IMG/VR virus record: IMGVR_UViG_3300035698_008372
Span: 64,001 to 128,000 of that record
Reading direction: 5' to 3' (one strand)
From: a virus
Length of the DNA: 64,000 bases
Below, piece after piece: positions 13,646 to 27,773 of this stretch. The first letter of the stretch is position 1. Each line of letters starts with the position of its first letter. Both the position numbers and the translations under genes were made by a program. The notes below the pieces were generated by a model. The model was not told where the DNA came from and made no database searches. It was given only the letters and a program-made list of their open reading frames with translations.

Positions 13646-13711
13646 AATATGAAGCGGTTAAGAATAATGGATACCGATTTAAATTAGATGTATATTAATA
13701 GGAGAATGATT

Positions 13712-14458
13712 ATGTATGGGATAGAAGATTTCAATTTGGAAGATTTCAATTTAATTTCGATTATGGAAATAGTCGATGAAAATAAATATGTTCAAACGAT
13801 GGACATAGAGGTTGCGGACAAGCATCATTTCTTTGTACGAAATCCTGAATACTCGGATGAATGTATTGTATCACACAATACAGCCGAAATTGTATTTGGT
13901 GATCCTGAGAATCAGGAATATTTGGACTTAAAGGATTACGACGTGAATCCATATAGGGAAGAATTTGGGTGGACATCGAACAATTCTATATTTGCCGAAT
14001 TGGGCATGGATTATACTGATGCTTGTAAACGTGTTGTGAAAAATGGTGAACCGGGATTTGCATGGCTTGAGAATATGCAGGGTTACTCACGTATGAAGAG
14101 CGGTAAAGACTACAAAGATAGACGTGTAAAAGGTGGAAATCCATGTGTTGTTGGTGATTCAATTATTACTACTGATAGAGGTAGACTTAGAATGGATGAA
14201 TTAGTTGAACGTGTAAATTCAGGTGAAACCATAAAAGTTATGTCTTTTAATGAACAAACATTAACAACTGAATTTAATGTTATTACAAAAGCGTGGATGA
14301 GTAAAAAGGATGCTACTGTATTGACATTGGAAATTGAGGAAAATGACCAAATGTTTAAATTGACATGTACCCCCGACCATAAAATATATACAACTAATCG
14401 AGGATATGTTGAGGCTAATGATTTAACTGGGGAGGATGATATAAAAATAATTACATAA
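13712..14458 (+). CDS. nrdJ: RNR part 2: C-intein 1 (to 13879) + 88-aa extein + N-intein 2 (14144-14455)
   Basis: TMDIEV..KHHFF...VSHN|TAEIVFG...TSNNS...NGEPG...GGNP|CVVGDS...CTPDHKIYT; SD AGGAG before ATG 13712. Confidence 0.92.
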   Translation: MYGIEDFNLEDFNLISIMEIVDENKYVQTMDIEVADKHHFFVRNPEYSDECIVSHNTAEIVFGDPENQEYLDLKDYDVNPYREEFGWTSNNSIFAELGMDYTDACKRVVKNGEPGFAWLENMQGYSRMKSGKDYKDRRVKGGNPCVVGDSIITTDRGRLRMDELVERVNSGETIKVMSFNEQTLTTEFNVITKAWMSKKDATVLTLEIEENDQMFKLTCTPDHKIYTTNRGYVEANDLTGEDDIKIIT

Positions 14459-15582: not shown

Positions 15583-16767
15583 AACTGTGGAGGATGTATT
15601 CGATTTAACCGTCGATGCTGTCCATAATTTTATAGCCAATGGTATATTGGTACATAACTGCCTTAACTACTAAGTCTCGGGGCAGTATAAATTTCTCCTG
15701 ATTGACTTGGAAGGTGAGTATACACCGACAGGGCGCAAGGGTAAAGCCAGCGTGAGAGACTGAGCGGAGAAACTTCAAAATGAAGATGCGACAGTCCACC
15801 TTATGAATCGAAACTTCTGATACGATTTGTAAACAGCGAACAAAGTTTAGAATCCTATGAATTGTGTTGTCTAGTTGAAACATTTCCAGACAATCATACG
15901 AGCAAAGAAGATTATTTGCGAACATTGAAATATGCTTATCTTTATGCAAAGACAGTGACACTTGGAAAAACTCATTGGCCAGACACAAATAGGGTTATGC
16001 TGAGAAATCGTAGAATTGGTACATCGGTATCTGGTATTGCCCAATTCATTACCAATCGAGGTCTGGGTGTACTCAGGGATTGGTTGGAAAGTGGGTACGA
16101 TGAGATTAAGAAATGGGATGAGATGTATTCAGATTGGTTATGTATTCAGCCCAGTATAAAAATTACAAGTGTGAAACCTAGTGGGACAGTATCACTACTG
16201 GCCGGATCAACTCCAGGATTACATTATCCAGAGAGTAGGTTCTACATCAGGCGTGTACGACTGGCAAAAAGTAGTAAACTGATTACACCACTTGAAAACG
16301 CTGGATACAAAATAGAACCGGCTTATGGTTCTGAAGAAAGCACAGTTGTGGTGGAAATTCCCATTGATGAGGGTGATGGAATTAGGACAAAGAAGGACTT
16401 AACGATGTGGGAACAATTGGCCCTTGCGGCGTTTATGCAACGGCATTGGGCTGACAATGCTGTTAGTGCCACGATCACGTTTGATCCGGAAACCGAATCG
16501 GATCAACTCCCATTCGCTTTGAACTATTTTCAGTATCAATTAAAAGGCATTTCATTTCTACCTAGAGTGGAAAAGGGGGCCTATAGACAAATGCCGTATG
16601 AGGAAATCACTGAAAGTGAATATGATAATATGAAAACTAATCTAAAATATTTGAGTTTAATTCACATTGAAGGGGAAATGGCAAACCCAGAAAAATATTG
16701 TGGGAATGATACGTGTGAAATTGATGCCGAGTGGGCACAAGTTGAAGATGAACAGGATGAAAAATAA
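15551..16767 (+). CDS. nrdJ: RNR part 3: C-intein 2 (15551-15658) + C-terminal extein, interrupted by a group I intron
   Basis: MGKLIRT...VFDLTVDAVHNFIANGILVHN|CL^EQSLESYELCCLVE...RNRRIG...TSVKPSGTVS; C-terminal CGNDTC. Confidence 0.9.
15664..15836 (+). ncRNA. compact group I intron (173 nt, no ORF)
   Basis: 5' exon ends in U, intron ends in G. P1 ACTGCCT/GGGCAGT with U.G; P3 TTTCTCC/GGAGAAA; P7 GACTG/CAGTC; P8 CTTCA/TGAAG. Removal restores C-L-E-Q frame. Confidence 0.9.
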
Positions 16768-17314: not shown

Positions 17315-17770
17315 ATGTACACATTAAAATTAAACGCATTTAGCGATGATATGATTGAACGGTATGCAAACCATACACATTATCATGAAGGAGATTCGGG
17401 GATAGATTTGTTCTTCCCAGACCCAGTAACAATACCAGCTGGAACTTTGGGTAAGAAAATCGGTCTCGGATTTTCGTGTGAAATGATATATGGGATGTCT
17501 GAAAACGTGTCATTCAATATATACCCACGATCCAGTATTTCCAAAACACCATTGAGATTGTCAAATTCGGTTGGTCTAGTGGATGCTGGTTATAGAGGTG
17601 AGATCATGGCATTATTTGATAATCACAGTGATAGGGATTACCATATTAGTGCGGGAGACAGGCTGCTACAGATCGTAGGACCCAACCTCCAGCCCATTGA
17701 TTTGGAATATGCTGAAGAATTATCTGGTTCCGATAGGGATGAAGATGGTGTTGGAAGCACGGGAAAATAG
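17315..17770 (+). CDS. dut: trimeric dUTPase
   Basis: DSGIDL, PRSSIS, NSVGLVDAGYRGEI, GDRLLQI, R...GVGSTG. Confidence 0.95.
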   Translation: MYTLKLNAFSDDMIERYANHTHYHEGDSGIDLFFPDPVTIPAGTLGKKIGLGFSCEMIYGMSENVSFNIYPRSSISKTPLRLSNSVGLVDAGYRGEIMALFDNHSDRDYHISAGDRLLQIVGPNLQPIDLEYAEELSGSDRDEDGVGSTGK

Positions 17771-17816: not shown

Positions 17817-17889
17817 GCGGTTGAGGTGTAAGGGGATTTGCATGTCGGCTTTCCAGCCGGAGGAGTTGGTTCAAAACCTTCCAACCGCT
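17817..17889 (+). tRNA. atypical tRNA-Gly-like (UCC in a 6-nt loop, mismatched T-stem)
   Basis: GCGGTTG/CAACCGC acceptor, U73; TCGGC-TTTCCA-GCCGG; GGTTCAAAACC; A at position 8; no CCA. Confidence 0.7.
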
Positions 17890-17900
17890 CTATTACAAAT

Positions 17901-17973
17901 GCGATTGAGGTGTTCAAGGGGAGCACGTCGGTATTCCATATCGAAGGAGTGGGTTCGAATCCTGCCGATCGCT
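17901..17973 (+). tRNA. atypical tRNA-Gly(UCC)
   Basis: GCGATTG/CGATCGC, U73; TCGGT-ATTCCAT-ATCGA; GGTTCGAATCC; A8; no CCA. Confidence 0.85.
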
Positions 17974-17984
17974 CTATTAAAAAT

Positions 17985-18057
17985 GCGATTGAAGTGTAAC
18001 AGGTAAGCACGCCGACATACCATGTCGGAAGAGTGGGTTCGAGTCCTACTGATCGCT
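17985..18057 (+). tRNA. atypical tRNA-Gly(ACC)
   Basis: GCGATTG/TGATCGC, U73; CCGAC-ATACCAT-GTCGG; GGTTCGAGTCC; A8; no CCA. Confidence 0.85.
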
Positions 18058-18084
18058 CTATTAATGCAAGGAAAAAAATGTTAT

Positions 18085-19242
18085 ATGAACTTCTCAAGTA
18101 AATTTTTCGATATCAAACCATTTGATATAGAAGAAGAAAAACAAAATCTAATCAATAATTTGGACTTTTTACATTCTATGACAGTGGAAGAACAAACCCT
18201 GTATAAGAAATGGCAGGAGTTCAATAAGAACGAACATAAGATCAGGGGGAAAGCCCACCTGTTTGATGTGTTTGAAAAAAGGTTATGGGCACCAACCGAT
18301 ATCTATGATGAGGATTTAACCATTAAGGAAATTAATGCGTTGGAGCCAGTTGTAGAATATGCAGGAAGCGATGAAGCTGCTGATTGGTCATTGTATAGGA
18401 TGTTAATTCACACAATGGATTGGTCTGCGAACCCCGGTAGAAATATGAAATTCTATGTAAAGGATGCTGTCACTCGTAAGGTGTTGGGTCTAATATCAAT
18501 GGGTTCAGATGTTACCAGTATCAAGGTCAGAGATGATTATATTGGTTGGAAAAAAGAAGATAAATTTGTAAATCACAAGTTGAATAATACGGCTATAGCC
18601 AGCACAATTGTGTCGGTTCAACCATTGGGTTATAACATGCTTGGTGGAAAATTGATAGCCGCGTTGGCAACAGTGTCAACAATTAGGGACAAGTGGGAAA
18701 AGGAATATGGTGATGTTCTAGCTGGGGTTACAACCACTTCATTATATGGCATCCATTCACAATATAACGGAATTCCACATTGGAAAACGATGGGTGAATC
18801 TGCTGGCAAGATTAGGATCAAGCCAGATGATAGTGAATATTTGAAATGGAATAAGTGGCTCAAAGAGAATTATCCAGATGAGTTTGAAAAAGCCATTACT
18901 GGAACGGGTCCCAAACAGAATGTATTAAGCAAGGTATTCAGCCATTTGAAAATTAGAGGTTATGAGCATGGATTTCATAGAGGTGTCTATTTTGCGTCAA
19001 TCTATGATAATACAGTGCCATTCTTAAAGGGTGAAATTGAACAATCTGAGCTCAAAATGAAACTGAAATATGAACAGGATTATGAATATATCGACAGGTG
19101 GTGGAAAAAGAAAGCCATAAGACGATATCAGAACATGATTGCACAGGATAGGATTAAACCAGAGAAATTATTCTATGGTGATATCGTGGGTGTATCTTGG
19201 GAAGAATGCCAAGAAATGTATTTAAAAGAAGTGGGGAGATAA
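18085..19242 (+). CDS. DUF4338/DruA-like protein (putative GNAT fold, Mom-related)
   Basis: NPGRNMKFYVKD, RDDYIGW, QPLGYNMLGGKLIA, TTTSLYG..SQYNG; ATG 18085 (track start overlaps the tRNA). Confidence 0.7.
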   Translation: MNFSSKFFDIKPFDIEEEKQNLINNLDFLHSMTVEEQTLYKKWQEFNKNEHKIRGKAHLFDVFEKRLWAPTDIYDEDLTIKEINALEPVVEYAGSDEAADWSLYRMLIHTMDWSANPGRNMKFYVKDAVTRKVLGLISMGSDVTSIKVRDDYIGWKKEDKFVNHKLNNTAIASTIVSVQPLGYNMLGGKLIAALATVSTIRDKWEKEYGDVLAGVTTTSLYGIHSQYNGIPHWKTMGESAGKIRIKPDDSEYLKWNKWLKENYPDEFEKAITGTGPKQNVLSKVFSHLKIRGYEHGFHRGVYFASIYDNTVPFLKGEIEQSELKMKLKYEQDYEYIDRWWKKKAIRRYQNMIAQDRIKPEKLFYGDIVGVSWEECQEMYLKEVGR

Positions 19243-19419
19243 TGAGTAAAACACTAGTTGAGAAGATCGAAGAATTGGGTACTGATTGGAGCAAGGTGAA
19301 TACCGCTTTGCATCACTTATGGTCAAAAAATGTCGGAACTGATAATTATGACAAAGAAGAATGGAAATTGTTAGAAAAATATATATATAAAATTATATTG
19401 AAAGACAGGGGATAAGCTT

Positions 19420-21180
19420 ATTTATAAGTCAATTTATTTCGAAGCGGAAAAACAGAAGATTCATTTGTGGGATGATGACCGCGGCTATTTCACAATACCA
19501 TATAGACGTTATGGGTATATAAAAGATAGGGGCGGCACATATACTTCATTATATGGGGACAGGCTTAAGAAAATCCACAAGTGGGGCAAAGATTCCACTG
19601 GATTATTTGAGAGTGATGTACACCCTGAAACAAGAACATTAATTGATCTGTACACCAATGACGATGAACCATCAAAAGGTAACAAAACGATTATTATTGA
19701 TATTGAAGTCGAGGTCACAGATGGATTCCCAACTGCTACTTTGGCCGAGAATAAGGTTACGGCTATATCAATTTACGATTTTACGGATAAGAAATATTAT
19801 GGTTTGGTATTGGAAAATGGCAAGGGTATTATCAAGCCATCCACAACTCCAGAGCTTGACATTGAAGTGTTTGATATGGAAGTTGATTTGTTGAATAGAT
19901 TCATGCAGATATACCTACGCATAAAACCAACTATTATTACTGGTTGGAATGTGGATAGATTTGATGTAACATACCTATACAATAGAATGGCCGATCAGCT
20001 GGATGAAGATGTAGCCAATTGCTTGTCTCCAATCGGTGTGGTACATTGGAGTGATTTCAGGGGTAGCTACAGAATCGCTGGGGTTGCAACAATGGATTAC
20101 TTACAGTTGTATAAGAAATTTACATTTACGCAACAGGCTTCATACAGATTGGATGCGATTGCTGATTTCGAATTGGGTGAACGCAAAATTGAATATGATG
20201 GTACACTAAACGAATTATATGAAAATGACATTGAAAAATTTGTCCAATACAACATCCATGATGTTCGACTAATTGAGATGTTGGACAAGAAATTGAATTT
20301 TATAGAAATCGCTCGTGGTATTTGTCACTTGGGGCATGTTCCGTATGAAGATATTTACTATGACAGTAGATACCTAGAGGCTGCTATTCTTGTTTATCTG
20401 AAAAAATTGAACATCATCGCTCCGAATAAGCCCGAGCGTGAGGGTTGGAAGGATGAAATTGGCTTTGAGGGTGCTCACGTTCAAAAGCCCAAGAAGGGTC
20501 GTCATAATTGGGTATATGATTTGGATTTAACATCAATGTATCCAAGCATCATTATGTCGTTGAACATTTCTCCAGAGACAAAAATAGGTAAAATAGATGG
20601 GTGGGATTCCAATAAATTTGTGAAAAAAACCCCAAAAACCTATACTGTCAAATATGGTACAACCGCACTCCAATCCATGGATCAGGATGAACTACAGGTA
20701 TTTTTTGATACCAATCATGTGTCGGTATCGGCCAATGGGATATTGTACAAAACTGATAGGGATGGCCTAATCGCGTCACTCCTGAAAAAGTGGTTCGACG
20801 AACGTGTTGAATTCAGAAAATTGGCTAAGAAGTTTGCCGACGCGGGTGATAACGAGAAATATGATTATTTCAATAGACGACAACATATCCAGAAGATTCT
20901 CCTTAACTCACTTTTTGGGGCACTCGGTTTGCAGGGTTGGAGATTCCATGACGTAGACAACGCCCTTGCAGTTACATCGACGGGGGTAGAATTAATTCGA
21001 TTTTCCAAAACCATTGCAAACCATTATTACAATACTGAGCTTGGTAAAGAAATTGAACTTGAAATGGAAGATGGGTCTATCAGAAAATTATATGAAAATT
21101 GGCCAATCCATGTAAAAAGGGGTGGTAAAAAAGTTCAAATTTTAGCCAAAAATCTCAAAATAAATGATGATATTCTCTAA
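19420..21180 (+). CDS. family B DNA polymerase, N-terminal part (probable ATT start)
   Basis: ExoI DIEV, TGWNVDRFD, YNIHDV, motif A DLTSMYPS, motif B KILLNSLFG; ends in an intein-like tail. Confidence 0.93.
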   Translation: MYKSIYFEAEKQKIHLWDDDRGYFTIPYRRYGYIKDRGGTYTSLYGDRLKKIHKWGKDSTGLFESDVHPETRTLIDLYTNDDEPSKGNKTIIIDIEVEVTDGFPTATLAENKVTAISIYDFTDKKYYGLVLENGKGIIKPSTTPELDIEVFDMEVDLLNRFMQIYLRIKPTIITGWNVDRFDVTYLYNRMADQLDEDVANCLSPIGVVHWSDFRGSYRIAGVATMDYLQLYKKFTFTQQASYRLDAIADFELGERKIEYDGTLNELYENDIEKFVQYNIHDVRLIEMLDKKLNFIEIARGICHLGHVPYEDIYYDSRYLEAAILVYLKKLNIIAPNKPEREGWKDEIGFEGAHVQKPKKGRHNWVYDLDLTSMYPSIIMSLNISPETKIGKIDGWDSNKFVKKTPKTYTVKYGTTALQSMDQDELQVFFDTNHVSVSANGILYKTDRDGLIASLLKKWFDERVEFRKLAKKFADAGDNEKYDYFNRRQHIQKILLNSLFGALGLQGWRFHDVDNALAVTSTGVELIRFSKTIANHYYNTELGKEIELEMEDGSIRKLYENWPIHVKRGGKKVQILAKNLKINDDIL

Positions 21181-21242
21181 GTTTATACTATTTATATACA
21201 GACACAATGTATCAATGTATAAAATATAAATTGGAGAGTAAG

Positions 21243-22082
21243 ATGAAAAAGGGGTCAGCGAGAACATTACAATATTGATTGGATAAAGGGTATAAAGGGG
21301 AAGAAGCAGAAAAAATGCGTATGAGCAGAATTCCAGGTACTATAGAATATTTTACTATATTTAAGGGGCTCCCATTGAATGAGGCCGAAATTGCGAAAGA
21401 AAATTATAACAAAAGGTCCGTTCCGACATTGGAAAATATGATACGCAAGTATGGGGAAACTGAAGGTGAAATTAGGTGGGGTGCATATCGTGAAAAACAG
21501 GCAAAATCCAATACATTTGAATATAAGCGTGATAAGTATGGTTGGACATTGGAACAATTCGATGCTTATAACAAATCAAGGGGATTGTCTGGTAAAGACA
21601 ATGGCAATTATGGGTCGAGCTATTATGAAGCTTGGGTTAAAAAGTATGGAAAAATAAAGGCCGATGAAATGAATAATGCTTTAGGTGAATTGAAAGCCAA
21701 AGGGGGGAAATCTCAAAAAGGTGTACCCAAATCATTTGTGGCTAGAAAAAATATGAGTATAGCTGCAAAGAAAAGGATAATGGATCAGGGTACTTACATT
21801 TCATATAATCCAAATTCAATTCCGATAATTGAAAAATATGGAAAAGAAAATGGATATAAATTTCAACATGCTGAAAATGGCGGCGAATATTTGGTTAGGG
21901 AAGTTTACTATTGGGTAGATGGGTATGATCATGAAAATAATGTGGTGGTTGAATATGATGAAAAATACCATGAAATGCAAACGGAAAAAGATAAAATTAG
22001 GCAACAACATATAATGGATGTGTTGGGGTGCAAATTTATAAGAATTAAAGAATCTGGAGAAATTAAGATTTATGAAAATTAA
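21243..22082 (+). mobile_element. free-standing Vsr/DUF559-like homing endonuclease splitting polB (UGA at 21276)
   Basis: QY*LDKGY..EEA, KYG...G repeats, FQHAENGGEY...YWVDGYD.ENNVVVEYDEKYH...D..RQ..I...LGCKFIRI. Confidence 0.82.
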
Positions 22083-22993
22083 AAATATAAGGGAATCAAA
22101 AGGTGTCGATGTGGATCATGTTATCTACATCGACACGTAGTGCGGATTCACTATTTATTTCGTCAACCGCGATGGTGAGCAAACGATATGGAAACAAGAA
22201 ATTCAGTGATGTCATGCTGTCACAGTACATCTTGACAATAGCTGGTGACACCCAAAAATTCATAAATAACTCGTATGACTATTTTGCCAAGAAATTCTGT
22301 AATCTTCCCGGTGCACACCGGTTTGAGATTAAACAGGAATTGATTGCAAAGTCAGCTGTATTTGTCAATGCTAAGAAAAATTATGGGTTGCGTGTTATCA
22401 ATGACAATGGTGTGAAAGTGGATAAAAATGTGTACAAAGGCTTGGCCGTAGTTCGCAGTGATTTCCCACAATCATACAGAAAATTGTTAGGTGAGGTGCT
22501 AGGTGATGTTCTAGCGGATGTTCCAAAAGATAAGATCGACGATCGTATTATTGAATACAAAAACAACATGAGATACTTGAATGTCGAAGATATCGCCAAA
22601 CCAACTGGGGTTAAGAATATCAAAAAATATTTGGTTCCACCTGGAGCGGGTGGGGGATTTTCTACTTGGAAGTCTCGTTGTCCTATCCATGTCAAATCAT
22701 CTATCATATACAATGATTTGATTAAGCATTTTGACAAACAAAAGAAGTACGCATTGATAGGGGCCGGCGACAAGGTCAAATGGGTGTACTTAAAGAAAAA
22801 TAATTTAGGATTAGAAAGTGTGGCTTATACAGGTCACGAAGACCCAAAGGAAATTATGGATTTCATATATAATTTTGTGGATAGGGATAAGATGTACGAT
22901 AGTATATTTTTGAACAAAATCACATCAATATATTCTGCCATGGACTGGTCGTTGCCCATAGATAAAAAGTTCTCGATGGACAGATTTTTTTAA
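22072..22993 (+). CDS. family B DNA polymerase, C-terminal part; 7-nt coding gap (22138-22144) inside YIDT^DS
   Basis: ATG 22072 MKIKNIRESKGVDVDHVIYIDT-TAG; DSLF resumes at 22145 in the +1 frame; later AKKNY, KGLAVVRSD, PIHVK, GDKVKWVYL, C-terminal SMDRFF. Confidence 0.9.
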
Positions 22994-23044
22994 TCGTTTG
23001 GGCACATTAATGTATATGTATATATAAAGAAACAAGGAGTTACA

Positions 23045-23764
23045 ATGGAAAAAGGAAAATTAGTACGGTTTATTCAAAAATATCATTTGAATGGCAACGT
23101 ACAATCGGTTTCAATGAATAGTGACGGTGAGACGTTAAAGGCGGAGTTTGTAACTTCGGACAGAGGGTTGCTCGGAACTATTAAAATGAAGAATTGGGGA
23201 TTTGAAAAATCCAAAATTGGTATCTTGGATACTGAGAAGTTCTTAAAATTATTGGCAGTATTGGATAATGATGTTAAATTGTCATTGTTAAAAGCTGGCG
23301 ATACGGCAATCACATTAAAGGTCGCGGACAATAGTTCTACAGTCAATCTGATGTTATCAGACTTGTCGGTAATTCCAGCTGTACCGCCTTTGAAGTATGT
23401 GCCGCCAATGAATCTCAAGTTGAACTTGGATTCAAATTTCATTAAGAAGTTTATCGCTGGTAAGGGTGCTCTATCCGATGTGGATAATTTCACAGTGGTC
23501 ACAGATAACGATTCTGTTAATTTGGTGATCGGTTATGCATCAATTAATACGGACAGGGTTATTGTTCCAGTTGATACTGAAGTATTCGAAAAGATTGACA
23601 AGGTATCATTCAACGCAAATATCTTCAAAGATATCCTGCAATGTAACCGTGAATGTAAAAGTGGAGTAATGGAAATCAGCTCAGAGGGTCTTTCAAAACT
23701 GACCTTTAATGTTGATGACTATGAAGTTGTGTATTTCTTAGCCGCATCTGAAAACGTAGGATAA
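23045..23764 (+). CDS. DNA sliding clamp (gp45/PCNA-like)
   Basis: 239 aa, beta-rich, between polB and clamp loader; IGILDTEKFLKLL. Confidence 0.7.
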   Translation: MEKGKLVRFIQKYHLNGNVQSVSMNSDGETLKAEFVTSDRGLLGTIKMKNWGFEKSKIGILDTEKFLKLLAVLDNDVKLSLLKAGDTAITLKVADNSSTVNLMLSDLSVIPAVPPLKYVPPMNLKLNLDSNFIKKFIAGKGALSDVDNFTVVTDNDSVNLVIGYASINTDRVIVPVDTEVFEKIDKVSFNANIFKDILQCNRECKSGVMEISSEGLSKLTFNVDDYEVVYFLAASENVG

Positions 23765-23770
23765 ACAACA

Positions 23771-24697
23771 ATGGTTAGAAAAACATCTCATTCGATATGG
23801 TGTGAATTATATCGACCAACATCAATGGAAACATTCGTAGGAAATGATCATCTCAAGGATAAAATTGATATGTACATTGAAACCAATGATCCGCCCCACC
23901 TGTTATTTCATGGTAAGGCGGGCACTGGTAAAACTACATTGGCCAAGGTCATACATAATAGTATAGACTGTGACCACTTGTACATCAATGCTTCAGACAA
24001 AGGTGGTGTGGATTACATTAGGACTGATATCATTCCATTTGCCAGTAGTGTTGGATTTAGGGAGTTGAAATTGGTTATCCTCGATGAGGCCGACTTTTTG
24101 ACTCCACAATTCCAAGCATCACTACGCAACGCTATGGAAACGTACGCGATGAATACTCGGTTCATATTGACTTGCAATTACCCCGAACGGATAATCGAAC
24201 CAATACAGAGCCGGTGCCAAATGTTTGAAGTTTATCCTCCAAGCAAAAAGGAAATCGCCGTACATGTCAGTGCAATATTGGCAAAAGAGGGTGTGAACCA
24301 TACCGCGAGTGACATCGGATTGATTGTCAATAGTAAATATCCAGACATTAGAAGTATTATCAATACATTGCAGAAACAATCAATTAATGGTGAGCTGAGA
24401 TTGGACAAGCGTTCGGTTGTGGAAAGTGACTATAAATTGAAGATATTGGATGTACTGAAAAAGCAGGATAAGAAAAACTCATTTGCTAGTATTAGACAAA
24501 TGGTGGCGGACAATTCAATCAGAGATTTCGCTGAGATTTATTCAATGTTATTTTCTGAGGTGGATGATTACGCTAAGGGTCATATCGCTCAAACGATATT
24601 GATTCTGGCCAGATACCAATTGAGTGATTCTCAAAGTGTCGATAAAGAAATAAATTTTATGGCATGCGTAATAGAATTGTTAGATTGTATTAAGTAA
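23771..24697 (+). CDS. clamp loader ATPase (gp44/RFC small subunit)
   Basis: WCELYRP, GKAGTGKTT, INASD, ILDEAD, FILTCNY, IQSRC. Confidence 0.95.
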   Translation: MVRKTSHSIWCELYRPTSMETFVGNDHLKDKIDMYIETNDPPHLLFHGKAGTGKTTLAKVIHNSIDCDHLYINASDKGGVDYIRTDIIPFASSVGFRELKLVILDEADFLTPQFQASLRNAMETYAMNTRFILTCNYPERIIEPIQSRCQMFEVYPPSKKEIAVHVSAILAKEGVNHTASDIGLIVNSKYPDIRSIINTLQKQSINGELRLDKRSVVESDYKLKILDVLKKQDKKNSFASIRQMVADNSIRDFAEIYSMLFSEVDDYAKGHIAQTILILARYQLSDSQSVDKEINFMACVIELLDCIK

Positions 24698-25501
24698 ATG
24701 GAAGAACAATTTGTAGACACGTCGAGGGTAGAACTTAGGATTATTACTACCGCTATAGCAAAAAGGATGATTGTAAAATACCATTACAGTCACGCATGGC
24801 CCGCATCAACTCAAGCTCCATTAGGGGTATTCTATAAGACAGGCAAGAAACATAAGTTTCTTGATGAGGATGATGAAAAATTGATTGGTTGTATTGTCTA
24901 TGGCAATCCAGTTGGTCGTAGAGCGGCCGCATCTATAGTGGATAGTGATGAGATTAACGCTCATGAAAGTGTTTATGAATTGACAAGGTTATTCATCCAT
25001 GATGGATACGGCAAGAATATTGAGAGTTATGTTATAGGTCAATCGTTCAAATGGTTGAAAGAGAATAGGCCTAAAATCAAAATGTTGATCAGTTATGCCG
25101 ACCCAGCACAGGGTCATGTTGGAGGAATCTATAAGGCCACCAACTGGGGATACCAAAGTGCGGATGATATGAAGTTGATGTTCAATTACCCAATTTCATT
25201 AACAAACGATCCTTATGATTGGATTCATAGCCGTACTGTATTTTCAAGGTACGGAGTGACTCCATATCCAACGGATGATGCAGTAGCCAAAATGAAGAAA
25301 GCGGTGGGCCAGACATTCTGGATGAAACGAGAATGTGTGAAGCATCGCTATATTCAATTCTTAGTGGACAAGAGGGAAAAACGGAAATTGATAAAATTGC
25401 TGAAGCACCCATTTCGAGACTATCCTACAACGGCCGACGACGATAGTGAAATTATTGAAGTGATAGTTGACGGGAGTGGAAAATTTGGGAAGTTCATGTA
25501 A
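24698..25501 (+). CDS. Mom-family DNA-modification GNAT, paralog 1
   Basis: KYHYSH, LIGCIVYG.P, ELTRL, ISYADP.QGHVGGIYKATNW, KHRYI. Confidence 0.8.
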   Translation: MEEQFVDTSRVELRIITTAIAKRMIVKYHYSHAWPASTQAPLGVFYKTGKKHKFLDEDDEKLIGCIVYGNPVGRRAAASIVDSDEINAHESVYELTRLFIHDGYGKNIESYVIGQSFKWLKENRPKIKMLISYADPAQGHVGGIYKATNWGYQSADDMKLMFNYPISLTNDPYDWIHSRTVFSRYGVTPYPTDDAVAKMKKAVGQTFWMKRECVKHRYIQFLVDKREKRKLIKLLKHPFRDYPTTADDDSEIIEVIVDGSGKFGKFM

Positions 25502-26268
25502 TGGAGAAATATACAGACATATCTAGAGTAAGTGTTCGACCAATAGATCGGACTACTGCTAAAGGTATCATTGAAAAATACCATTATAGTCATTTGATTC
25601 CAGCTACTTTACAGCTGTCATTGGGTGTATTTTATGAATCTGATGACACAGGTAAATTTTTTGATGACAATGAAAAATTGATAGGGTGCATAATGTATGG
25701 GCATCCATCTGGCAGAATGGTAGTGGATTCCATAACCGAAGGTGATTTGCTCGATCGGGAAAATATAATGGAACTTTTGAGGTTGTTTATCCATGATGGT
25801 TATGGCAAGAATATTGAGAGTTATGTAATCGGACAATCGTTCAAATGGCTCAAAATCAACAGACCAAAAGTAAAGGTGTTAATCAGCTTTTCCGACCCAG
25901 CAGAAGGTCATTTGGGTATCATATACCAATCGACCAACTGGTTGTTTCAAATGATTCCATCATCTGGTAAGTGGCAATTTTCAATGGAAAAAAACCCGTA
26001 TCATTGGGTACACCCCAGAACAATATTTGGAAGATATGGATTTTGTGGTGTGGAAGATATGAAAAAGTCATTTGATAAGAACTTCTATGCCAAGCGCCTG
26101 ACAAACAAATTTCGATATTTGTACATACTGACCAATAAATCGGAAGCTAGGAAAATCAAGAAAAATCTAATCCACGAACTACTGCCATACCCAAAGTCAA
26201 TTGATTATATGGAAGAAATAGTGGAAGTCGAAGTGAGCGGAAATTCGAAGCTCGGAAAGTTCATATAA
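25501..26268 (+). CDS. Mom-family DNA-modification GNAT, paralog 2
   Basis: KYHYSH, ELLRL, ISFSDP.EGHLGIIYQSTNW, KFRYL. Confidence 0.8.
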   Translation: MEKYTDISRVSVRPIDRTTAKGIIEKYHYSHLIPATLQLSLGVFYESDDTGKFFDDNEKLIGCIMYGHPSGRMVVDSITEGDLLDRENIMELLRLFIHDGYGKNIESYVIGQSFKWLKINRPKVKVLISFSDPAEGHLGIIYQSTNWLFQMIPSSGKWQFSMEKNPYHWVHPRTIFGRYGFCGVEDMKKSFDKNFYAKRLTNKFRYLYILTNKSEARKIKKNLIHELLPYPKSIDYMEEIVEVEVSGNSKLGKFI

Positions 26269-27035
26269 TGGAAAAATATACGGATACTTCTAGGGTCACT
26301 ATAAGGCCGATAGACAAAAAGACTGGTATTAATATGATTAAAAAATACCATTACACTCACAAAGCACCTGGTACTACTCAGGATGTGTTGGGTGTGTTTT
26401 ATAAGGGTGAAGAAGCCAACAAGTTTTTCGATGATGATGAAGTATTGATCGGGTGCATGTTATATGGTCATCCAGTTGGTAGGTGGACAATAAAATCCAT
26501 TATCGAAGATGAAAATATCAAATCCTATAATGTGTATGAATTACTGAGGTTATTTGTACACGATGGGTATGGCAAGAATATCGAAAGCTTTGTCATAGGT
26601 CAATCATTTAAGTGGCTGAAAGAGAACCGACCAGAGGTGAAAATATTGGTGAGTTATGCCGATCCTGAAGCCGGTCATGTGGGCATCATATACCAATCAA
26701 CTAACTGGATGTTCCAGATTCCAGAACCAGGTGGAGCAATGATGACTTCACTAACCAAAGACCCGTATGTATGGGTTCACCCAAGGTCAATGCACGCAAA
26801 GTTTGGTGCTTGTGGGGTGGATGGTCTCAAAGAGGCATTGGACAAACCATTCTACATGAAAAAATCACCTCCAAAATTTAGATATGTATATCTATTGACG
26901 GACAAAAGGGAGAGCAAGATATTGAAATCGAAATTCGTATATCAACAATCTCCATATCCAAAAGAGCACGATTATGTTGAAAAAGTTATTGAAATGGTGC
27001 CCAATGAAGAGAAAAAATTTAGTAAATTTATTTAA
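26268..27035 (+). CDS. Mom-family DNA-modification GNAT, paralog 3
   Basis: KYHYTH, ELLRL, VSYADP.AGHVGIIYQSTNW, KFRYV. Confidence 0.8.
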   Translation: MEKYTDTSRVTIRPIDKKTGINMIKKYHYTHKAPGTTQDVLGVFYKGEEANKFFDDDEVLIGCMLYGHPVGRWTIKSIIEDENIKSYNVYELLRLFVHDGYGKNIESFVIGQSFKWLKENRPEVKILVSYADPEAGHVGIIYQSTNWMFQIPEPGGAMMTSLTKDPYVWVHPRSMHAKFGACGVDGLKEALDKPFYMKKSPPKFRYVYLLTDKRESKILKSKFVYQQSPYPKEHDYVEKVIEMVPNEEKKFSKFI

Positions 27036-27067: not shown

Positions 27068-27331
27068 ATGAGTCAATTAAATCCAAGAAAACCATTACCA
27101 AAATCACCACCAAAACTAGACCTAGCGAAGGCAGAAACCATCGTATGTGAACAAGAGGGGTGTGGTAATATGTTATTTCTTCAGTCATTCGTGATGAAAA
27201 GAGTATCGGCCATTTTGAGCCCAAGCGGTAAAGAAGAATTACTACAAATTCCAGTTATGAGTTGCGGAGCATGTGGTGGGGTCAATAAGGAATTCATGGC
27301 CGCATTCGGAGAACCCGACAGCGATGGTTAA
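27068..27331 (+). CDS. small Zn-ribbon protein
   Basis: CEQEGCGN...SCGACG. Confidence 0.65.
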   Translation: MSQLNPRKPLPKSPPKLDLAKAETIVCEQEGCGNMLFLQSFVMKRVSAILSPSGKEELLQIPVMSCGACGGVNKEFMAAFGEPDSDG

Positions 27332-27773
27332 TACCAAGATCAAAAAGGCCAAAACCTTATTTGAACATGTAAACCATGTCAATGAAAAACAAACCAAAAA
27401 TTACTGGGAAACCTTATCTGAAGCCGATAAGAAAAATTGGTCCAATTATATGATCCACAGGTTTTTGTCGATGGAACCAGCATTTATTGAGATAGTGAAT
27501 GAGGTTCAAAAATATAATCTCACTCCGGATATGGTGTATAAATTCTACATAGATGTTCTGCCAAAGGGTAAGCGGTGGTTGAAATATGTAAAAAAAACGG
27601 CCAAACAGAAATTCGAGAGTGGATTGGTGGAATTGTTTGCAAAGCATTTTGAGGCTAGTATTCTTGAATCGACTGAATACATTGAATTATTGAGCCGATC
27701 TGAAATTGAAGAGATTTTGGACAAATATGGTCTGGATGCAAAAACAAAACGAAAATATCTGAAAGGAATTTAG
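27324..27773 (+). CDS. clamp loader small subunit (gp62-like)
   Basis: YMIHRFLSM...YKFYIDVLPKGKRWLKYVK resembles the T4 gp62 family; context. Confidence 0.6.
   Translation: MVNTKIKKAKTLFEHVNHVNEKQTKNYWETLSEADKKNWSNYMIHRFLSMEPAFIEIVNEVQKYNLTPDMVYKFYIDVLPKGKRWLKYVKKTAKQKFESGLVELFAKHFEASILESTEYIELLSRSEIEEILDKYGLDAKTKRKYLKGI

Follow-up and report, generated by a model that had tools for sequence, protein, structure and literature searches.

A large marine phage carries three tandem tRNA-Gly-like genes (t1–t3) at 17,817–18,058 of the window, the 64,000-nucleotide stretch of DNA analyzed here (positions 64,001 to 128,000 of IMG/VR record IMGVR_UViG_3300035698_008372). They lie 20 nt 5′ of a gene for a DruA/DUF4338-family GNAT and 6.6 kb from three Mom genes. 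Judging from sequence features and gene neighborhoods, t1–t3 probably act outside the ribosome, as glycine donors that the phage encodes for its Mom enzymes and, probably, also for DruA-like GNATs. As odd tRNAs of this kind adjoin the enzyme genes across many phages, their most likely role is to carry glycine privately for the chemical disguise of phage DNA and not for protein synthesis. Viral tRNA genes are usually explained by codon usage or defense evasion. Dedicated non-ribosomal tRNAs are so far on record only from staphylococci, where they serve cell-wall synthesis; that Mom depends on tRNA was first reported in 2026, the donors being host tRNAs; and no description of a phage tRNA-Gly/GNAT pairing was found in the literature searched. 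If the donor reading is true, viruses themselves supply the donor tRNAs for hypermodifying DNA. Such a role, new for their tRNA genes, would explain many odd or unannotated phage tRNA-like genes and make natural orthogonal tRNA–enzyme pairs obtainable.

The tRNA-Gly-like genes and their surroundings

The genes sit in the replication module, where all features described here are on the plus strand. The tRNAs (t1, 17,817–17,889; t2, 17,901–17,974; t3, 17,985–18,058) are preceded by a dUTPase gene (17,315–17,770; PF00692, E = 3.6e-11; phrog_135) and followed by the DruA-like gene (18,079–19,242; PF14236, E = 2.8e-22; PADLOC DruA, E = 1.4e-22), an order conserved in the relatives L001–L003; no terminator-like site was found between the tRNAs and the DruA-like gene. 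Further downstream, a family B DNA polymerase (19,465–22,993; PF00136, PF03104, phrog_262) is encoded by two ORFs (19,465–21,180 and 22,103–22,993) with another ORF inserted between them (21,279–22,082; phrog_22677, weak DUF559 match). The three Mom paralogs (24,698–25,501, 25,501–26,268, and 26,268–27,035; PF25680, E = 3.9e-43, 1.9e-42, and 4.7e-41) occupy a slot bordered on the left by the gp44-like large subunit of the clamp loader (23,771–24,697; phrog_168, E = 9.7e-74; PF00004) and on the right by the gp62-like small subunit (27,273–27,773; PF16790 Phage_clamp_A, E = 2.4e-06).

ARAGORN called two tRNA-Gly genes, at 17,901–17,974 (UCC) and 17,985–18,058 (ACC), and the Rfam tRNA model matched three regions, at 17,817–17,889 (31.9 bits), 17,903–17,970 (23.8 bits), and 17,985–18,057 (47.1 bits). 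Given the RF00005 gathering score of 29 bits, t3 and t1, the latter missed by ARAGORN, lie above the threshold and t2 below it despite being called by ARAGORN; t2 scored 76 bits with model R1, the training set of which included the t2 sequence. ARAGORN, Rfam, and Pfam agree with the original prediction of three tandem tRNA-Gly-like genes 5′ of a DUF4338 gene and near three Mom genes. Across the entire 140,003-bp contig (CheckV completeness about 71%), ARAGORN found no tRNAs beyond this set, which is solely Gly.

The GlyRS identity elements claimed for all three RNAs could be read directly from the sequences: G1–C72, C2–G71, G3–C70, U73, C35, and C36, the set as listed in PMC7826273, is complete in t1–t3 and is also present in relatives found independently of the search pattern. 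An encoded CCA is absent from t1–t3, which have C74 alone. All three have A8 and weakened T-stem pairs at 50–64 and 51–63; the anticodon loop is either 6 nt long or has an A32–U38 that could pair. In t1 (anticodon UCC), a 5-bp anticodon stem carries the 6-nt loop UUUCCA, and the T stem has U50·U64 and U51·U63; t2 (UCC) has U14, the loop AUUCCAU (A32/U38), U50·G64, and G51·U63; and t3 (ACC) combines the loop AUACCAU (A32–U38) with U50–A64, G51·U63, and G·U pairs at 6–67 and 7–66. The pairs that determine EF-Tu binding are thus weak by sequence in each RNA, and base-pair rules from the literature suggest that t1–t3 would be excluded from EF-Tu.

The RNAs are real and under selection. In an alignment of 54 related sequences, 98.1% of the cells are paired, and changes on both sides are seen at 17 of the 21 pairs; the covariation score was 0.754, in comparison with 0.10–0.15 when the partners were slid, the alignment being fitted to the model and for that reason leaning toward the structure. 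The ortholog of t1 (L086:5785-5857) keeps the 6-nt loop and both U·U pairs, while its acceptor and anticodon stems vary in a compensatory manner. The score of t2 below the Rfam threshold, and several defects resembling damage, would fit functionless decaying pseudogenes or hitch-hiking duplicates, linked to the enzyme genes by an accident of shared ancestry. The compensatory changes make this extremely improbable, as do the conservation of the defects themselves across diverged lineages and the retention of the linkage over at least five gene arrangements and among Mom proteins of four clusters less than 40% identical.

Association with Mom and DruA-like genes across phages

We scanned IMG/VR for A8-type tRNA-Gly, giving 94 matches with 66 unique sequences, and used the same pattern with U8 as a control. 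A Mom or DruA-like gene was located within 400 nt in 56 of the 94 A8-type matches and in 7 of 120 U8 controls among the matches listed, 6 of these 7 being beside a DruA-like gene (Fisher p = 2e-18, kinship ignored and U8 figures being those among the matches listed). The co-occurrence set out beforehand as a check of the original prediction is thus strong. Its form was only partly as proposed, however: in the window lineage the tRNAs adjoin the DruA-like GNAT and are not coupled to Mom, whereas in other lineages the tRNA and Mom genes are directly adjacent.

The A8 tRNA-Gly was 22–105 nt upstream of a DruA-like gene in about 21 of the 94 matches and directly 3′ of a same-strand Mom gene in about 30; in two cases it preceded a Mom gene by 10 nt and in three it lay beside an opposite-strand Mom, the script tallies of these arrangements differing by one or two. 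In L154 and L160, the tRNA is followed by a 455-aa ORF and then by tandem Mom genes, at least six and at least four, respectively. All ten tRNA-adjoining genes tested with Pfam were Mom (E from 1e-33 to 1e-52), and the tRNA-adjoining Mom proteins fell into 16 clusters when grouped at 70% identity and into 4 when grouped at 40%.

This variety of positions bears on the possibility that the tRNA-like RNA is a target or regulator of the adjoining GNAT and not a donor. The DruA-like protein might acylate charged tRNA in the manner of TacT/AtaT-type toxins, or the RNA might control GNAT expression as a signal for RNase P/Z processing or as a sensor of charging. GNAT toxins that acetylate aminoacyl-tRNA do exist, and the short gap before the DruA-like start is terminator-free. 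We nevertheless regard such a role as quite unlikely: the tRNA may precede Mom, follow it, or lie on the other strand, which is hard to reconcile with fixed regulation in cis, and Mom, the other linked partner, is a proven user of a Gly-tRNA donor. Even the variants reduced the furthest retain the full GlyRS identity set and end in CCA or C74, which fits a need for glycine charging rather than a mere processing signal.

Comparing GNAT-adjacent and non-adjacent tRNAs inside the A8 set provided an internal control independent of the search pattern. Among unique sequences, G–C or C–G at 51–63 was found in 3 of 36 GNAT-adjacent and 23 of 30 non-adjacent A8 tRNAs (69 of 82 U8 controls among the matches listed), and the canonical loop CUUCCAA in 0 of 36 and 18 of 30, respectively (63 of 82 U8 controls among the matches listed). 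Just 6 of 22 Mom-adjacent tRNAs had a 7-nt anticodon loop; most had loops of other lengths and A·C or G·A mismatches in the EF-Tu-sensing pairs, and some were without a D arm or without a TΨC loop. It is the defects of the T stem and the anticodon loop that track the enzymes, and A8 alone is no mark of a non-decoding tRNA. Of the translation-breaking features originally proposed, then, these defects held up and A8 did not: the 30 A8 tRNA-Gly without a neighboring GNAT mostly look canonical, and phage Melnitz has A8 in a tRNA-Trp. In L012, L045, and L055, the other phage tRNAs (Ala, Cys, Glu, Tyr, and canonical Gly-UCC) have U8, and A8 is found only in the DruA-adjacent tRNA-Gly.

The RNAs could also be working translational tRNAs that supplement the common Gly codons of an AT-rich phage or replace host tRNAGly inactivated in defense by toxins acting on tRNAGly or Gly-tRNAGly, the adjacency to a GNAT reflecting at most an extra demand for glycyl-tRNA. 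The commonest Gly codons of the phage, GGT (42%) and GGA (28%), match the ACC and UCC anticodons; t2 and t3 have 7-nt anticodon loops, U33, A37, and TΨC-type T loops; known toxins (FaRel2, TacT) target tRNAGly; and canonical-looking A8 tRNA-Gly is found in other phages. This remains unlikely in view of the 6-nt loop of t1, conserved in its ortholog, the aberrant loops, mismatches, and missing arms of the Mom-adjacent relatives, and the presence of a separate canonical tRNA-Gly(UCC) alongside the odd one in L055. Gly is, moreover, the sole tRNA type on the phage contig, A34 for Gly is to our knowledge very unusual in bacteria, and the tight linkage to two GNAT families would be left unexplained. 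Phage tRNAs thought to offset codon usage or escape host anticodon nucleases are likewise phage-encoded and changed in sequence from host tRNAs, but they stay decoders, usually in mixed arrays, whereas the window set is Gly-only, GNAT-linked, and has putative decoding-disabling features. That t2 and t3, with their 7-nt loops, intact T loops, and anticodons fitting the commonest Gly codons, might decode counts against the donor reading, as does the occurrence of A8 in canonical-looking tRNA-Gly and in a tRNA-Trp.

Adjacency of the two gene types is not universal. About 58 of 80 DruA-like loci are without an adjacent tRNA, DruA-positive cyanophages have ordinary tRNA-Gly genes, and a tRNA beside Mom is absent in Mu and in Polaribacter phage P12002L; all three observations count against a donor role.

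The Mom and DruA-like enzymes

Each of the Mom paralogs matches PF25680 at 141–148 bits (cut-off 27.1), and paralogs 2 and 3 are 53 and 49% identical to paralog 1. Six of the seven active-site residues of Mu Mom (PDB 8bv8), H58, Y59, R111, S124, D149, and Y159, are invariant in the alignment of all three, while R151 aligns to A, A, and E; R111 and S124 are essential in Mu Mom. Published biochemistry confirms Gly-tRNA(Gly) as the Mom co-substrate, as the original prediction had it: the glycine of Gly-tRNAGly is what Mu Mom attaches to the N6 of adenine in double-stranded DNA, the product being N6-carbamoylmethyl-adenine (Silva et al., Nat Commun 2026, PMC13219725). Mu Mom accepts all three host tRNAGly isoacceptors (PMC13219725), so that a private donor is not required, which counts against the donor reading. 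Mu also differs from the window phage in having a single mom gene, no tRNA gene, and Com/C regulation; the window has three paralogs with a C-terminal extension, placed in the replication module with tRNAs present.

The product of the DruA-like gene matches PF14236 at 79.7 bits (cut-off 27) and falls in a virus-specific clade. The GNAT fold of DUF4338 was noted by the Aravind laboratory (PMC10853773), and the AF2 model of the window protein (pLDDT 89.2) had Mu Mom 8bv8 as its top PDB match (Foldseek probability 1.00). In the structural comparison (VIA), 8bv8 gave Z = 10.2 and rmsd 3.7 over 170 aligned positions, generic GNATs reaching Z of at most 8.9; no sequence similarity between the DruA-like protein and Mom was detectable (hhalign probability 1%), a point against the donor reading. 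In cyanophages S-SSM7 and S-T4, the DruA-like gene sits in the annotated gp44–gp62 slot, occupied by the Mom genes in the window phage, and in cyanophage S-PRM1 it comes just after the clamp loader gene. The window protein shares with DruA of type I Druantia the Pfam and PADLOC profile matches and the GNAT fold, but its gene is phage-borne, located between the dUTPase and DNA polymerase genes with clamp loader genes nearby and no DruBCDE alongside, and does not belong to a type I Druantia system.

As a tentative extension, which we think less likely true than not so, DUF4338/DruA proteins could be Mom-like aminoacyl-tRNA-dependent transferases moving glycine or a derived group onto nucleic acid, with phages having repeatedly evolved or captured private, non-decoding tRNA-Gly variants, down to D-arm-less mini-tRNAs, as orthogonal donors. 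Viruses would then possess a DNA-modification module complete in itself, made up of a tRNA plus a GNAT, and the DruA of type I Druantia may likewise mark or modify DNA via a charged tRNA. If the donor reading of t1–t3 is right, DUF4338/DruA, a family without known activity, gains a concrete, testable biochemical hypothesis.

A putative donor pathway and its closest known systems

Under the donor reading, the tRNAs would be co-transcribed with genes of the replication module, the DruA-like gene probably among them, and matured by enzymes of the host: RNase P, those for 3′ processing, and the one that adds CCA. The retained identity set would allow charging by host GlyRS, while the weak or mismatched 49–65, 50–64, and 51–63 pairs and the abnormal anticodon loops would largely keep the RNAs away from EF-Tu and ribosomes. 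The private Gly-tRNA pool formed in this way could then supply the GNAT transferases. The three Mom paralogs would place glycine onto the N6 of adenine in double-stranded phage DNA, with rearrangement, as in Mu, to N6-carbamoylmethyl-adenine; the DruA-like GNAT, having Mom as its closest solved structure, very probably would make similar use of the pool, on DNA or another target. The phage DNA would be shielded from host nucleases and the translational Gly-tRNA pool left undrained.

The precedent cited in the original prediction is sound: staphylococci keep EF-Tu-evading tRNAGly for Fem transferases, the non-proteogenic tRNAGly with A49–U65, U50–A64, and A51–U63 bind EF-Tu weakly, and such tRNAs are stated to be known only in staphylococci (PMC7826273). 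Like the phage set, NP1–NP3 of S. aureus and S. epidermidis are extra tRNAGly paralogs with GlyRS identity kept and weak first T-stem pairs, and their U50–A64 and A51–U63 are also seen in the DruA-adjacent phage tRNA family. NP1–NP3 donate glycine to a GNAT-fold Fem transferase outside the ribosome, and a like role is proposed for the phage tRNAs. The acceptor is peptidoglycan in staphylococci and presumably DNA for the phage tRNAs, and the phage genes are viral, adjoin that of the enzyme, and come from different tRNA lineages. A8, anticodon loops of other than 7 nt, and D-arm loss are found among the phage tRNAs and not in the staphylococcal ones. NP1–NP3 have altered D and T loops, whereas t1–t3 retain UUC-type T loops and G18G19.

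The staphylococcal type of non-TΨC T loop (UGC or UGU) and GG-less D loop was found elsewhere, in L055, the Psychrobacter phage vB_PmaS_Y8A, and the Pelagibacter phages HTVC008M and Mosig. The DruA-adjacent tRNA-Gly of L055 has a UGC T loop, also seen in the Psychrobacter phage, and a D loop without GG. The three cultured phages among these carry more pronounced forms of the tRNA and are test systems at hand. DruA-like genes are present and Mom is absent in HTVC008M and Mosig, where the tRNA-Gly(ACC) lacks both a TΨC-type T loop and G18G19. In vB_PmaS_Y8A, two unannotated tRNA-Gly-like RNAs lie directly 3′ of a Mom gene, with the D arm missing, CCA encoded, and a UGC T loop.

A tandem tRNA-Gly-like cluster next to a DruA-like gene

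The window holds three head-to-tail tRNA-Gly-like genes on the plus strand, t1 (17817-17889), t2 (17901-17974, anticodon UCC) and t3 (17985-18058, anticodon ACC), with spacers of 11 nt between t1 and t2 and 10 nt between t2 and t3. ARAGORN called t2 and t3, and t1 was detected with the Rfam tRNA model without an ARAGORN call. The three are the sole detectable tRNAs across the parent sequence, a single viral contig of 140,003 bp (37.6% G+C, about 71% complete), on which ARAGORN found no suppressor tRNA. By its polymerase, the phage groups with marine and freshwater T4-like myoviruses. A DruA/DUF4338 gene (18079-19242, plus strand; PF14236, E 2.8e-22; PADLOC DruA, E 1.4e-22) starts 20 nt past t3 and is followed by a two-piece family B DNA polymerase, the large subunit of the clamp loader, a tandem array of three Mom genes (24698-27035, plus strand; PF25680, E about 1e-42 each) and a gp62-type clamp loader subunit. 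Upstream of the tRNAs are a dUTPase gene and two ORFs, one ribonucleotide-reductase-like and one with intein-like matches.

All the tRNA oddities listed in the original prediction were found in the sequences. G1-C72, C2-G71, G3-C70, U73, C35, C36 and A8 (A at tRNA position 8) are common to the three genes. In t1, a 6-nt loop, UUUCCA, closes a 5-bp anticodon stem and the T stem contains U50.U64 and U51.U63; t2 has A32/U38, U50.G64 and G51.U63, and t3 combines the ACC anticodon with A32/U38 and G51.U63. In energy folding, the anticodon stems of t2 and t3 grew to seven pairs, leaving a loop of 3 nt. None of the three encodes CCA. A gene for a CCA-adding enzyme is likewise absent from the contig, so maturation of the tRNAs would rely on the host.

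Such departures might be read as decay of tRNA genes, which we regard as highly improbable. In the closest relatives, whose DruA-like protein is 90% identical, the 6-nt loop and the two U.U pairs are preserved in the t1 ortholog, and its acceptor and anticodon stems show compensatory substitutions. Across 54 related sequences, in an alignment fitted to the model, 98.1% of the cells pair and both sides change in 17 of 21 pairs, far above slid controls. The genes t1-t3 are under selection.

Several further features of the region were recorded. Of two ORFs upstream of the cluster (13688-14458 and 15862-16767), one has intein/HINT-like matches and the other a weak ribonucleotide-reductase barrel match, which suggests a reductase interrupted by an intein. 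The family B polymerase (19465-22993) is split into two ORFs, and the insert ORF (21279-22082; phrog_22677, weak DUF559) looks like a homing-endonuclease-type insertion. A RAGATH-20 match at 17475-17532 was rejected as chance (E 0.46, far under the gathering score).

The enzymes and their proposed glycine donor

The role of Gly-tRNA(Gly) as a Mom cosubstrate is borne out by Silva et al. (Nat Commun 2026; PMC13219725): Mu Mom moves glycine from Gly-tRNAGly to the N6 of adenine in double-stranded DNA, and a rearrangement follows. R111 and S124 are essential, and all three E. coli isoacceptors work; phage tRNA genes go unmentioned in that study (PMC13219725). The three Mom paralogs of the window keep H58, Y59, R111, S124, D149 and Y159 of Mu Mom, and R151 is replaced. 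The staphylococcal precedent likewise stands: Rietmeyer et al. described non-proteogenic tRNAGly with A49-U65, U50-A64 and A51-U63 in the T stem, T loops UGC or UGU and weak EF-Tu binding, a type that by their account was known from staphylococci only (PMC7826273). In the library searched, we found no paper that ties tRNA-Gly genes of phages to either Mom or DruA.

DUF4338 has been described as a GNAT (acyltransferase-fold) domain (PMC10853773). The DruA-like protein of the window was predicted with high confidence (pLDDT 89.2), and the best PDB match of the model was Mu Mom (Foldseek probability 1.00, E 2.4e-3). VIA-align gave Z 10.2, rmsd 3.7 and 170 aligned residues against Mu Mom vs. Z of at most 8.9 and about 145-150 residues against generic GNATs. 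A sequence search of the protein against the PDB returned nothing meaningful, and no similarity to Mom emerged from the profile-profile comparison (probability 1%); judged from the predicted model, the relationship between the DruA-like protein and Mom is one of fold only.

We consider a private, nonribosomal supply of Gly-tRNA for GNAT transferases the most economical reading of these data and a probable one. Such a pool would feed Mom and probably also the DruA-like protein, which we include as a user because of its linkage and fold. Against a private supply, Mu Mom does not need a special tRNA, and there are many DruA-like and Mom genes without a tRNA beside them.

Outside the window, contig positions 41677-43374 (equal to L294:1678-3375) encode a 565-aa protein whose C terminus carries a fourth, divergent Mom-like domain. 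The protein has further matches to DUF7487 and, at a weak level, to a REase-like domain; scored over its full length, it reaches 23 bits, short of the Pfam Mom cutoff. Its gene is flanked by genes for tail sheath and for NAD-dependent DNA ligase.

Linkage of tRNA variants to GNAT genes in IMG/VR

We searched IMG/VR for A8-type tRNA-Gly using a pattern that left positions 32, 38, 49-51 and 63-65 unconstrained and obtained 94 matches (66 unique sequences). The predicted co-occurrence with Mom and DruA genes was evident, with 56 of the 94 matches adjoining such a gene vs. 7 of the 120 listed for a U8 version of the pattern, which had at least 120 matches (Fisher p = 2e-18, relatedness ignored); six of these seven neighbors were DruA-like. 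By two script tallies that differ by one or two, about 21 A8-type matches precede a DruA-like gene by 22-105 nt, about 30 are directly 3' of a Mom gene in the same orientation and 2 lie 10 nt ahead of a Mom gene, while 3 adjoin one on the opposite strand. All 10 of the Mom neighbors tested were Pfam Mom, and clustering of the tRNA-adjacent Mom proteins gave 16 groups at 70% identity and 4 groups at 40%. The largest Mom arrays met in the analysis, with at least six genes in L154:759-6295 and at least four in L160:2-4109, follow a tRNA-Gly-like gene (two copies in L160) and a 455-aa ORF that matches no known family.

Starting from the enzyme, we retrieved 80 IMG/VR loci with DruA-like proteins 51-90% identical to that of the window and searched upstream using a covariance model built from DruA-adjacent tRNAs. 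About 22 of the 80 loci, in diverged clades, have an A8 tRNA-Gly that precedes the DruA-like gene by 22-125 nt; none was found in the rest. In whole-contig searches, two or three Mom genes were present on 3 of 5 tRNA-bearing vs. 2 of 5 tRNA-less DruA-like contigs. Eight of these 10 contigs are fragments with a completeness of 21-68%; on one contig that is 93% complete, a DruA-like gene occurs without any Mom gene.

Sequence features follow the neighborhood. G-C or C-G at 51-63 occurs in 3 of 36 unique GNAT-adjacent A8 tRNAs vs. 23 of 30 nonadjacent ones and 69 of the 82 U8 controls listed; for the canonical loop CUUCCAA the counts are 0 of 36, 18 of 30 and 63 of 82, respectively. In most Mom-adjacent tRNAs the anticodon arm spans 18 nt and can be read either as a 6-nt loop on six pairs or as an 8-nt loop; these tRNAs keep A49.C65 and G51.A63 in the T stem over many covarying acceptor stems. 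In DruA-adjacent tRNAs, positions 32-38 are pairable and the T stem has U50-A64/A51-U63. The alternative that the tRNAs are translational or defence-evading gains from t2 and t3, which could in principle decode and whose anticodons fit the commonest Gly codons; set beside these enzyme-tracking features, we think it unlikely. Another alternative, that the tRNA is a target or regulator of the GNAT, is one to which we give little credence. A private Gly-tRNA supply remains our preferred reading.

A8 was rejected as the key antitranslation feature. Canonical-looking A8 tRNA-Gly and an A8 tRNA-Trp exist, and we therefore treat A8 as a lineage marker, not a disabling feature. In three phages (L012, L045 and L055), A8 occurs only in the DruA-adjacent tRNA-Gly, and L055 has a second, normal tRNA-Gly(UCC) beside the odd one. 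The A8 tRNA-Trp(CCA), from Methylophilales phage Melnitz-3 (L296:2997-3070), shows that A8 is not limited to tRNA-Gly; it lies 0.9 kb upstream of the Mom gene of that phage, within an annotated hypothetical CDS.

Neighbors of A8 tRNAs lacking an adjacent GNAT gene were mostly unannotatable, the few annotated ones being a carbamoyltransferase, an EcoRI-type adenine methylase, a 2OG-Fe oxygenase and thymidylate synthase. At L146:5445-5918, a thymidylate synthase gene is preceded by three copies in tandem of an odd tRNA-Gly (6-nt loop AUUCCA), and no GNAT gene is present within this short locus.

Cultured phages

Megablast of the window region found no match in the cultured-phage collection. Psychrobacter phage vB_PmaS_Y8A has two unannotated tandem tRNA-Gly-like RNAs of about 66 nt directly 3' of Mom (L295:3162-3300, equal to OQ059336.1 7786-7924); they lack a D arm, have the acceptor stem of tRNA-Gly with U73 and an encoded CCA, and carry a UCC anticodon and T loops of the UGC type. 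Pelagibacter myophages HTVC008M and Mosig encode DruA-like proteins but lack Mom. Each carries, a few kilobases from the DruA-like gene, one tRNA-Gly(ACC) with encoded CCA (HTVC008M, L300:1501-1574; Mosig, L301:1501-1572, minus strand); G18G19 is absent from these tRNAs, and their T loops, AGCGUUA or GGCAGUA, are not of the TΨC type. No tRNA-like RNA was found near Mom in Mu or Polaribacter phage P12002L. In the DruA-positive cyanophages S-SSM7, S-T4 and S-PRM1 (L310, L311 and L312), the tRNA-Gly genes look canonical and are thus uninformative either way. The DruA-like gene of S-PRM1 follows a clamp loader gene, and in S-SSM7 and S-T4 it is flanked by gp44 and gp62, both annotated as clamp loader genes; this is the slot that in the window is occupied by the three Mom genes.
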